Sequence record: MK524176.1
DNA length: 64,000 nt
Source of the DNA: Escherichia phage PHB11
Strand: one strand, 5' to 3'
In this document: positions 11,183 through 11,276 of the stretch, in pieces
Layout of the letters: each line of letters opens with the position of its first letter
Position numbering within the stretch: position 1 is the first letter of the stretch
Notes under the pieces: model-generated
The model's database searches: none
The model's input: only the letters and a program-made list of their open reading frames with translations
Told to the model about the DNA's origin: nothing
Made by a program: the position numbers and the translations under genes

Positions 11183-11276
11183 CCAAATTATAATAAGTAT
11201 TTCAAGATGATGTTTTGAGAGGGCTATTTAGCCCCTCCCTTAAAGAGTTCTTACGAGTATTCTTTAAAGGAGCAGA

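Follow-up and report, generated by a model that had tools for sequence, protein, structure and literature searches.

The stretch of Escherichia phage PHB11 DNA that we analysed (64,000 nucleotides (nt) of record MK524176.1, hereafter the window) encodes three copies of a small RNA hairpin among its tRNA genes, and these are homologous copies of one RNA hairpin on a long plus-strand tRNA transcript. A preliminary description of the window had pointed out two of them as a motif with a covarying stem at two boundaries of the tRNA cluster. The shared hairpin is real: both sites fold, align without gaps, are kept in relatives and are recovered by a covariance model built from hairpins of T5-like phages only. 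A motif search run across the window and in related phages added the third copy and revealed conservation across three phage groups, the Felix-like, T5-like and phiEco32-like phages. The element possibly punctuates the tRNA precursor for processing.

The 5.8 kb around the hairpins share 94–97% identity with Salmonella phage Felix O1 and related phages (Felixounavirus). ARAGORN detected 26 tRNA genes at 10515–16100, all on the plus strand, and the annotation of this cluster in the Felix O1 record consists of tRNAs, HNH endonucleases and hypothetical open reading frames (ORFs) only. For comparison we assembled 28 Felix-like loci, namely 27 contigs retrieved via the gene upstream of the tRNA cluster together with Felix O1 itself; labels such as L002 and L227 denote the contigs or genomes of relatives that were compared with the window.

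The 10-mer TTCTTACGAG is present exactly twice in the window, at 11248–11257 and 14997–15006, both on the plus strand. By itself such a match is weak, given that about 2,000 pairs of this kind are expected in 64 kb. The preliminary description had taken the 10-mer for the core of a loop closed by a stem of five base pairs (bp). RNA folding instead assigned it to the upper stem, CU/AG (UUCU/AGAG at site 2), and a UACG tetraloop, with a stem of 10–12 bp. The sites had been located correctly, and their limits were displaced by 1–3 nt from those of the cores given in Table 1. Copy 1 (UUAAAGAGUUCU-UACG-AGUAUUCUUUAA; −10.8 kcal/mol, z −2.8) has a stem of 12 positions, 11240–11251 against 11256–11267, with one U/U mismatch and one G·U pair, and its loop lies at 11252–11255; beyond a C/A mismatch, a lower extension pairs 11235–11238 with 11269–11272 (CUCC/GGAG). 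Copy 2 (UAAGGAUUCU-UACG-AGAGUCCUUA; −11.6 kcal/mol, z −3.4) is a 10-bp helix with its loop at 15001–15004. It takes up the 31 nt that separate tRNA-Gln(CUG) from tRNA-His, and its end is 3 nt 5′ of G−1 of tRNA-His. When extended (14983–15022), the helix reaches into the CCA of tRNA-Gln on one side and into the 5′ end of tRNA-His on the other. The terminal bases of tRNA-Gln (GCCA plus C, 14983–14987) are complementary to those that begin tRNA-His (G−1 UGGC, 15018–15022), so that the helix at site 2 can extend into both tRNAs; in that form it would compete with their acceptor stems. Copy 3 has a stem of 15–16 bp with the loop CUAAG/UAA and ends 4 nt before tRNA-Arg(UCU).

MAFFT aligned copies 1 and 2 without gaps and in one common pairing register, which is preferable to the gapped alignment (AAAGA-g versus AAGGA-) offered previously. 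In this register, pair 10:25 is A-U in copy 1 and G-C in copy 2, pair 6:29 is A-U and U-A, respectively, and two more pairs are wobble-changed. The two copies thus do differ in a compensatory manner, as had been claimed for their stems, and covariation is also seen in relatives.

Independent and non-circular evidence for the family was provided by a covariance model of seven T5-like hairpins only, searched against the 64-kb window. The three best matches covered the three copies (Table 1), and the best unrelated match in the window scored at most 17 bits. A second model, built from copies 1 and 2, gave 59.6 bits for copy 1, 53.5 bits for copy 2 and only 8.9 bits for copy 3. Copy 3 is nevertheless a true member of the family, because both the T5-based model and BLAST recover it. 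Covariation was counted over 25 distinct family sequences and an 18-pair structure. In this alignment, 88.7% of the cells pair, compared with 42–59% when the partner is slid by 1–3 columns; 9 of the 18 pairs are doubly changed (66 cells), and none of 500 shuffles reached the observed score. The apical 9 bp hardly vary (AAGRR UYYU-loop-AGAGU YCUU), and the base of the stem covaries.

These results bear on whether the resemblance might have arisen by chance or as a by-product of coding or low-complexity sequence. A shared 10-mer is indeed expected in 64 kb, but both sites are non-coding spacers between RNA genes, and they are conserved and covary in relatives. When IMG/VR was scanned with the 3′ half alone, the roughly 70 unrelated and mostly coding matches had 0–4 extra pairs, versus 6–14 in family members; a scan with both arms specified returned many coding matches in marine phages without the hairpin. 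The lone coding exception (L090, L097, L148) is a metallophosphoesterase peptide, EEFLREFF, whose DNA GAAGAGTTCTTGCGAGAGTTCTTTAAG mimics the quasi-palindrome of the hairpin; it speaks for a chance origin to that extent and serves as a caution for pattern-based hairpin searches. The counts of extra pairs, the covariation shuffles and the recovery of all three copies by the T5-only model refute the chance explanation, to which we attach practically no weight. An identity as a small coding ORF was likewise rejected: the only ORFs that cross the sites are mechanical ones of 40 and 53 amino acids, the second overlapping tRNAs, and the variation preserves pairing rather than following third codon positions.

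The upper 5′ arm reads UUCU, CUUU or UUUU and always faces a constant AGAG, so that only C-G to U·G changes occur there. Given that such changes are mismatches in DNA or on the opposite strand, the hairpin is an RNA-level structure of the tRNA strand. Covariance-model scores on the minus strand are about 30 bits lower, and every non-coding copy is oriented like the surrounding genes. A DNA-level element, such as an operator, a homing-endonuclease target or landing pad, a cruciform, or a single-strand hairpin promoter or origin, would be suggested by the near-palindromic sequence, by the HNH genes that populate the Felix tRNA cluster, and by the ORFs that in several T5-like phages have entered precisely at the junction of hairpin and tRNA-Arg. 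The inserted ORFs, however, lack an endonuclease domain, the G·U pairs and the C-G to U·G changes mismatch in duplex DNA, each compensatory change would leave an operator with two altered half-sites, and the orientation always matches transcription. We therefore consider a DNA-level element highly improbable.

Table 1. Coordinates of the hairpin copies, of the model matches that recover them and of neighbouring features in the window.
Feature	Coordinates	Strand	Basis or score	Remarks
Hairpin copy 1	11240..11267	+	RNA fold, covariance-model match, 28/28 Felix-like loci	
Hairpin copy 2	14991..15014	+	RNA fold, covariance-model match	
Hairpin copy 3	12173..12207	+	Inverted repeat, T5-only covariance model	Missed in the preliminary description
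T5-only model match	14983–15022		33.9 bits, E 3e-5	
T5-only model match	12173–12207		30.9 bits, E 1.6e-4	
T5-only model match	11234–11273		27.5 bits, E 1e-3	
Hairpin A	11221..11234	+	RNA fold	Small, G+C-rich (GGGCU AUUU AGCCC); directly 5′ of copy 1
tRNA-Asp	11108..11185	+	ARAGORN	Upstream neighbour of the copy-1 block
tRNA-Arg(UCU)	12212..12288	+		Preceded by copy 3; hairpin + tRNA module homologous to the T5-like one
tRNA-Gln(CUG)	14911..14986	+		Upstream neighbour of copy 2, which begins 4 nt past its CCA
tRNA-His	15018..15093	+	ARAGORN	Preceded by copy 2 in every hairpin-bearing relative
ORF, predicted Ro60-fold protein	8935–10350	+	Pfam DUF2828 + DUF7788	Directly upstream of the tRNA cluster
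Y-RNA-like RNA, first	10681–10759	+	RNA fold	Among the first tRNAs
Y-RNA-like RNA, second	10848–10919	+	RNA fold	Among the first tRNAs
Y-RNA-like RNA c	11270..11352	+	RNA fold, shared closing helix	Among the first tRNAs; 5′ strand begins 2–3 nt past copy 1
Y-RNA-like RNA, fourth	11360–11497	+	RNA fold	Among the first tRNAs

Site 1 was kept in all 28 Felix-like loci and site 2 in all loci that retain the tRNA-His junction; the three loci without site 2 are either truncated or devoid of the entire distal half of the cluster. Pair 10:25 of site 1 is A-U in most loci, G-C in 8 and G·U in 4, and is replaced by an A/C mismatch only in Felix O1. One Felix-like lineage carries the loop UGCG, and two further changes at site 2 of L002 produce a perfect helix of 18 bp. 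Variants of copy 3 in relatives (C-G to U·G, G·U to G-C and G-C to G·U) always preserve pairing. The mean pairwise identity of copy 1 among 25 distinct Felix-like sequences was 0.96, a level equal to that of nearby tRNA-like arms and above the 0.81–0.85 of neighbouring loops. Even L227, a more distant Felix-like contig whose protein upstream of the cluster is 63% identical, retains all three copies: the orthologue of site 1 is a perfect 17-bp helix with the loop UUCG, that of site 2 has the loop UAUA and lies between tRNA-Leu(UAA) and tRNA-His, and that of site 3 persists where tRNA-Arg(UCU) has been replaced by an ORF. In L002, tRNA-Asp has been deleted and the site-1 block remains, now following tRNA-Tyr, and a different tRNA-Asp allele lies upstream of this block in L005 and L017.

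Given these changes of neighbours in L227 and L002, the constant neighbour of the hairpin is the downstream RNA (tRNA-His, tRNA-Arg(UCU) or RNA c, one of four Y-RNA-like RNAs) rather than the upstream tRNA. The end of the hairpin lies 0–5 nt before the 5′ end of the structured RNA that follows in all three cases, and the start of the 5′ strand of RNA c makes copy 1 its 5′-flanking hairpin. The earlier statement that both sites lie directly 3′ of a tRNA block therefore holds for copy 2 and needs qualification for site 1, which begins 55 nt past tRNA-Asp in the window and about 25 nt past it in most relatives. The difference is due to a 28-nt insert at 11186–11213 on the plus strand, AATTATAATAAGTATTTCAAGATGATG, which separates tRNA-Asp from the copy-1 block and is limited to the window and a minority of relatives (L003, L012, L022, L024, L025 and L028); most relatives read CCA-ATTTTG without it. 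Hairpin A belongs to the conserved block tRNA-CCA/AUUUU/hairpin A/copy 1. Its loop is variable in relatives, and its stem changes are compensatory (GGACU/AGUCC in L227).

To cover phages beyond the Felix-like loci, GenBank phages were searched by BLAST with the hairpin sequences and IMG/VR was scanned with degenerate patterns. BLAST found about 275 Felix-like GenBank records with site 2, and the IMG/VR scan yielded five phiEco32-like contigs besides Felix-like ones. The phiEco32-like element contains 22 nt, AAGGATTCTTACGAGAGTCCTT, that are identical (22/22) to the core of copy 2 within unrelated flanks. The exact 22-mer is present in about 100 phiEco32-like records (Gordonclarkvirinae), in an unannotated intergenic block 8 nt past a stop codon, and a second, diverged copy with the loop UCCG is followed by the next gene after about 45 nt. 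In Escherichia phage ECBP2 (L130, 2523–2780) and other phiEco32-like phages, the hairpin opens a conserved intergenic block of 285 nt that contains several more hairpins and a strong terminator-like sequence, GGGAGG...CCCCTCCCCCTATTT, and closes with the UCCG-loop copy. The genes upstream of this block differ between phages, so that its start marks a mosaic junction.

A copy-2-type query gave a weaker BLAST match in T5-like phages, and a T5-like hairpin used as query matched 515 records at full length with 87–100% identity. The T5-like element is a helix of 18–19 bp. In Tequintavirus and some Epseptimavirus it ends 5–15 nt before tRNA-Arg(UCU), and in other T5-like genomes the two are separated by one or two inserted ORFs, with the hairpin intact. 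Neither these inserted ORFs nor the neighbouring ORFs of the window matched a nuclease or a shared family in Pfam or PHROGs. Copy 3 and the Sugarlandvirus hairpin are 86.8% identical over 38 nt, whereas the adjacent tRNA-Arg is only 78% identical, and in T5-like genomes with hairpin and tRNA-Arg(UCU) adjacent, the alignment to the window spans both. The hairpin has thus moved among these three phage groups, on at least one occasion in company with tRNA-Arg(UCU). BLAST found no copy in 5,426 complete E. coli genomes. The continuous helix measures 18–19 bp in T5-like phages, 15–16 bp in copy 3, 12 and 10 positions in copies 1 and 2, respectively, and 10 bp in the first phiEco32-like copy; copies 1 and 2 reach 16–18 pairs when mismatches are allowed.

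Two further features were noted upstream of the hairpin in T5-like phages and in the window. In T5-like L131 (2076–2498) and L220 (about 900–1500), a conserved and strongly structured non-coding leader of about 420–600 nt (z −3.9 for its last 140 nt) ends in the hairpin; on its other side the leader is bounded by either a tRNA-SeC-like pseudo-tRNA or an annotated promoter, and it may represent an undescribed T5 small RNA or leader. The best match to a σ70-like promoter in this region of the window (TTGACA-17-TATAGT, 11/12; 11891–11919, plus strand) is situated just past tRNA-Ile and about 250 nt upstream of copy 3 and tRNA-Arg(UCU), a layout that parallels the annotated order of promoter, leader, hairpin and tRNA-Arg in T5-like phage AKFV33.

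From the anatomy of the sites, we infer that the hairpin may be, in a broad sense, a punctuation or processing element of the polycistronic tRNA precursor, a reading that we place a little short of probable. The preliminary description had suggested a processing or protein-recognition hairpin, which is supported in part by an element that is a hairpin of the RNA on the tRNA strand, lies inside a presumed polycistronic precursor and combines a conserved apex with a covarying base. To call it a boundary signal of tRNA clusters would be too narrow, since the phiEco32-like copy adjoins no tRNA and the tRNAs of phages related to Yersinia phage P778 are found without the hairpin.

Folding of all spacers of at least 25 nt in the cluster placed the hairpin in a wider context. 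Almost all of them are closed by a stem that ends 0–8 nt before the next tRNA. The spacer at 11496–11637 (plus strand) has a perfect stem of 22–24 bp ending 4 nt before tRNA-Lys, with several compensatory changes in Suspvirus-type relatives (L018 and L019), and that at 12804–12893 (plus strand) has a stem of 24–29 bp ending 1 nt before tRNA-Leu. The spacers at 13728–13814 and 13976–14084 (plus strand) are likewise stem-closed, as are the Y-RNA-like RNAs and copies 2 and 3. Two of the spacer stems, of 22–26 bp, covary, and the linkers beside closed spacers read (U)UUAAU or AAAU. The long spacer modules, whose stems stop 1–5 nt short of the next tRNA, look like processing stalks around RNAs of 90–140 nt. 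Given that spacers are generally closed in this manner, the hairpin family represents the shortest version of a recurrent closed-spacer design.

In such a design, self-folding would close the spacer as a helix, so that the neighbouring tRNAs could fold independently and only short, A/U-rich single-stranded linkers would be left exposed. RNase P would then cut on the 3′ side of the hairpin. On its 5′ side, the cut would fall just past the upstream CCA and be made by an endonuclease that requires an adjacent helix; a candidate is RNase E, which binds nearby stem-loops via the duplex groove. RNase E cleavage beside a tRNA requires an adjacent structured unit, for which a simple stem-loop suffices (PMC9841416). 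The longer versions, of 16–19 bp, might themselves be substrates of host RNase III, like the T4 tRNA precursor and the T7 intergenic sites, and after cleavage the helix may also shield the 3′ end of the upstream RNA. E. coli RNase III participates in the maturation of T4 tRNAs (PMC4810235). RNase III sites in vivo carry a base-pair pattern, in proximal, middle and distal boxes around the cut, in addition to being helical (PMC6212723), which could explain the sequence conservation of the hairpin. Cleavage by this enzyme is staggered and leaves 3′ overhangs of 2 nt. Within the processing reading, we place roughly half of the weight on RNase III as the nuclease.

Several points weigh against a processing role. 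In the P778-like relatives (53–56% protein identity), no member of the hairpin family was found, and their tRNA-His and tRNA-Arg(UCU) are preceded by 5–7 nt or by unrelated spacers without a hairpin; the hairpin is therefore not required for these tRNAs. In phiEco32-like phages, the hairpin that follows the stop codon by 8 nt is 1.07 kb away from the sole tRNA. An RNase III substrate spans about two helical turns (about 20–22 bp, with ~22 bp filling the cleft), with a minimum near 11 bp from the loop, and the continuous helix of copies 1 and 2 and of the phiEco32-like copy, at 10–12 bp, is short for this enzyme. A stable helix 3–5 nt from the RNase P site is expected, if anything, to slow RNase P, and the near-invariant apical sequence exceeds the needs of a mere helix.

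The conservation of the apex could also mean that a host protein of Enterobacteriaceae, or a protein shared by the phages, reads the apical helix, the tandem wobbles and the tetraloop in a sequence-specific manner and thereby governs stability, the timing of processing or another step. Neither the apical 9 bp nor the AGAG strand varies among the three phage groups, whereas the base covaries; copy 2 and the phiEco32-like copy share 22 of 22 nt despite unrelated flanks, the hairpin is better conserved than the adjoining tRNA, and an irregularity in the middle of the stem (G·U/U·G, or G·U plus U/U) has been kept. The loop, on the other hand, varies (UACG, UGCG, UUCG, UCCG, CACG, UAUA and CUAAG), the partner protein is purely hypothetical, the neighbouring ORFs share no family across the three groups, and, with no copy in the E. 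coli genomes searched, a host factor would have no cellular site. A protein-binding site of this kind appears unlikely to us.

We assign a similarly low probability to a passive structured spacer or hitch-hiking relic, exchanged together with tRNA modules as a harmless helix that spares tRNA folding and has no dedicated nuclease or partner. The homology, between Felix-like and T5-like phages, of a module made up of hairpin and tRNA-Arg(UCU) would suit such a relic, as would the survival of the hairpin after insertion of an ORF before the tRNA and after loss of the tRNA (L227), its dispensability in P778-like relatives and the closure of all cluster spacers by stems. A neutral spacer should drift faster, however, and the hairpin is more conserved than the adjoining tRNA and other spacer loops, persists in over 800 genomes from three families, and is maintained as three paralogues in one genome.

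It is also conceivable, though doubtful, that the hairpin is a dedicated, sequence-specific RNA signal traded among virulent enterobacterial phages of three unrelated families. If so, it would have spread originally as a cassette of hairpin plus tRNA-Arg(UCU), and a host or phage factor would control through it the maturation or survival of phage tRNAs and small RNAs, for example as a phage-specific processing code or as a decoy against RNA-targeting defence. It would then represent an undescribed family of cis-regulatory RNA rather than a generic helix.

The hairpin was also compared with known classes of element. UNCG-type loops are present in copies 1 and 2 (UACG), in L023, L228 and L224 (UGCG), in L227 (UUCG) and in the second ECBP2 copy (UCCG), and other loops in L222 and L225 (CACG), in L221 and copy 2 of L227 (UAUA) and in copy 3 (CUAAG/UAA). 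The loop-closing pair 18:23 is U-A in 25 of 25 distinct sequences. With this closing pair and with loops such as CACG, UAUA and CUAAG, a strict C(UNCG)G tetraloop hairpin, which owes its exceptional stability to C-G closure, was rejected. A Rho-independent terminator was rejected because the terminator scan missed the sites and the A/U-rich stems are followed by AAAGGAG and AAAUGUGG rather than by a U tract, and a σ70 promoter because no promoter-like site overlapped any copy in a −35/−10 scan with spacings of 16–18 nt. A likeness to a duplex of Shine-Dalgarno and anti-Shine-Dalgarno sequences, and to the anticodon loop of tRNA-Arg(UCU) (CUUCUAA before copy 2), was a post hoc observation, and T5-like copies do not conserve the UUCU arm. 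Rfam 15 contained no family for the hairpins in the cluster, in the region 10670–11510, or in the T5-like and ECBP2 loci: it reported only a spurious mir-4659 at 14972–15033 (22–25 bits, compared with a gathering score of 92) and nothing at 11240–11267 or 12173–12207. Sub-threshold Rfam matches at 11818–12211 (plus strand), before copy 3, to permuted tmRNA (25.8 bits, E 0.025) and tmRNA (15.2 bits) are probably driven by tRNA-like pieces. A full-text literature search with the hairpin sequence retrieved only unrelated primers, older papers on the T5 tRNA region being outside its reach, and the hairpin is not mentioned in T5 transcript-mapping papers or in the DRT9 paper.

A different short UACG hairpin, CCUCCUUACGAGGA, was found in several relatives (L003 at 14912, L011 at 15205–15240, L012, L013, L015 and L016), where it sequesters a GAGGA Shine-Dalgarno sequence 7 nt before the start of a DUF7338 ORF. 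It is absent from the window at 14164–14183, where the sequence upstream of the corresponding ORF (14183–14740) is different and shorter.

Copy 1 lies beside what is likely a phage Ro60/Y-RNA system, composed of the protein encoded at 8935–10350 and the four Y-RNA-like RNAs. The protein has no sequence match in PDB. An AlphaFold model obtained from 43 homologues (mean pLDDT 88.9) has a Ro60/TROVE+vWA fold: its 11 best structural matches in PDB are all Ro60/TROVE proteins, among them Thermus phage phiLo Ro60, Xenopus Ro60 and D. radiodurans Rsr (E 8e-8 to 1e-5, TM 0.5–0.64), and are followed by vWA-domain matches only. A homologue, Bas63 gp130, resembles Ro60 and counters the ppl defence system, as described in a 2024 preprint, where the idea that Y RNAs might be among the annotated "tRNAs" was no more than speculation (PMC11482910). 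The four RNAs share a bulged closing helix, NNNC-AGA-AGRCCNN ... NNGGUCU-G-GNNN. In 19 distinct sequences of this helix, paired cells amount to 92.5%, versus 22–45% when slid, and the outer helix is 100% paired with three of its four pairs covarying. The fourth RNA encloses a circularly permuted tRNA-like module, consisting of a T arm, a loop-closed acceptor-like stem and a D arm, and the acceptor-like stem covaries (ACUCGGC/GUCGAGU, ACACGU/GCGUGU and ACCCUUC/GAAGGGU). Such a permuted module is the YrlA architecture of bacterial Y RNAs (PMC4201824). None of the four RNAs is reported by Rfam or annotated in the Felix O1 record. In L009, at about 12560–12620 (equivalent to 11419–11700 of the window), a natural deletion, apparently by recombination between GGTTCGATTCC repeats, fuses the T arm of the YrlA-like RNA to that of tRNA-Lys, so that L009 lacks most of the YrlA-like RNA.

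This proximity raises the question of whether the hairpin is an accessory of the Ro60/Y-RNA system, either as a module of RNA c or as a substrate or landing site for a complex of Ro60, Y RNA and exonuclease that trims structured trailers. Copy 1 abuts RNA c, the Ro60-fold protein is encoded 0.9 kb upstream, and bacterial Ro60 and Y RNA adapt PNPase to structured RNA (PMC4201824). Copies 2 and 3, however, are not beside Y-RNA-like RNAs, and T5-like and phiEco32-like phages are not among the 709 phage records with a homologue of the Ro60-fold protein. The hairpin also lacks the CAGAAGRCC/GGUCUGG motif; these motifs occur at 10684/10750, 10851/10910, 11273/11343 and 11363/11488, none within the hairpins, and identity as a Y-RNA stem was accordingly rejected. 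Given its occurrence in phages outside the records with Ro60 homologues, we do not regard the hairpin as part of the Ro60 system and rate an accessory role as improbable.

Phage tRNA clusters are drawing interest as counter-defence tool-kits, and the cutting of their precursors is almost unstudied outside T4. The hairpin, in more than 800 phage genomes of three families, offers a mutable handle on which host nucleases mature phage tRNAs and on whether this maturation is regulated, and it is a clean marker of the horizontal exchange of tRNA modules among Felix-like, T5-like and phiEco32-like phages. Even if it should prove merely a structural spacer, annotation would gain, in that the spacers are structured RNA rather than junk or small ORFs.

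Among cellular systems, the stalks of rRNA operons and the tRNA precursors cut by RNase E (PMC9841416) resemble the present arrangement in that paired ends of modules form a helix beside tRNAs in a precursor; these are host operons without a specific conserved hairpin sequence. Y RNA and YrlA (PMC4201824) offer a parallel in small structured RNAs interleaved with tRNAs, and copy 1 is beside Y-RNA-like RNAs, but the hairpin has neither the bulged closing helix nor the tRNA-like module and occurs in phages that are not among the records with a Ro60 homologue. In its behaviour the hairpin resembles three phage elements, the RNase III helix of the T4 tRNA leader, the T7 RNase III hairpins and the T4 UUCG hairpins, without being homologous to any of these.

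RNase III processing of the precursor of the T4 tRNA cluster was reportedly described by Pragai and Apirion in 1981. There, a helix for a double-strand nuclease lies upstream of a tRNA and precedes finishing of the 5′ end by RNase P, and the present hairpin is placed likewise. T4-like phages were not among the BLAST matches, however, the helices of the window are shorter, and cleavage here is only presumed. Intergenic RNase III hairpins of T7 early and late transcripts are said to have been characterised by Dunn and Studier. With these the family shares an irregular middle, a position between cistrons, several paralogues per genome and a stem that would protect the 3′ end after the cut, and the T7 layout fits the phiEco32-like copies, the first just past a stop codon and the second shortly before the next gene. 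The T7 sites differ in having at least about 20 bp and a defined internal loop, compared with 10–19 bp and a tetraloop in the present family, and there is no homology. Tuerk et al. are reported to have found C(UUCG)G hairpins in intercistronic regions of T4 in 1988. Unlike these, the present hairpins are closed by U-A, include some non-UNCG loops and have their conserved part below the loop; in both cases, UNCG-type loops (here UACG, UGCG, UUCG and UCCG) cap intergenic hairpins of phages.

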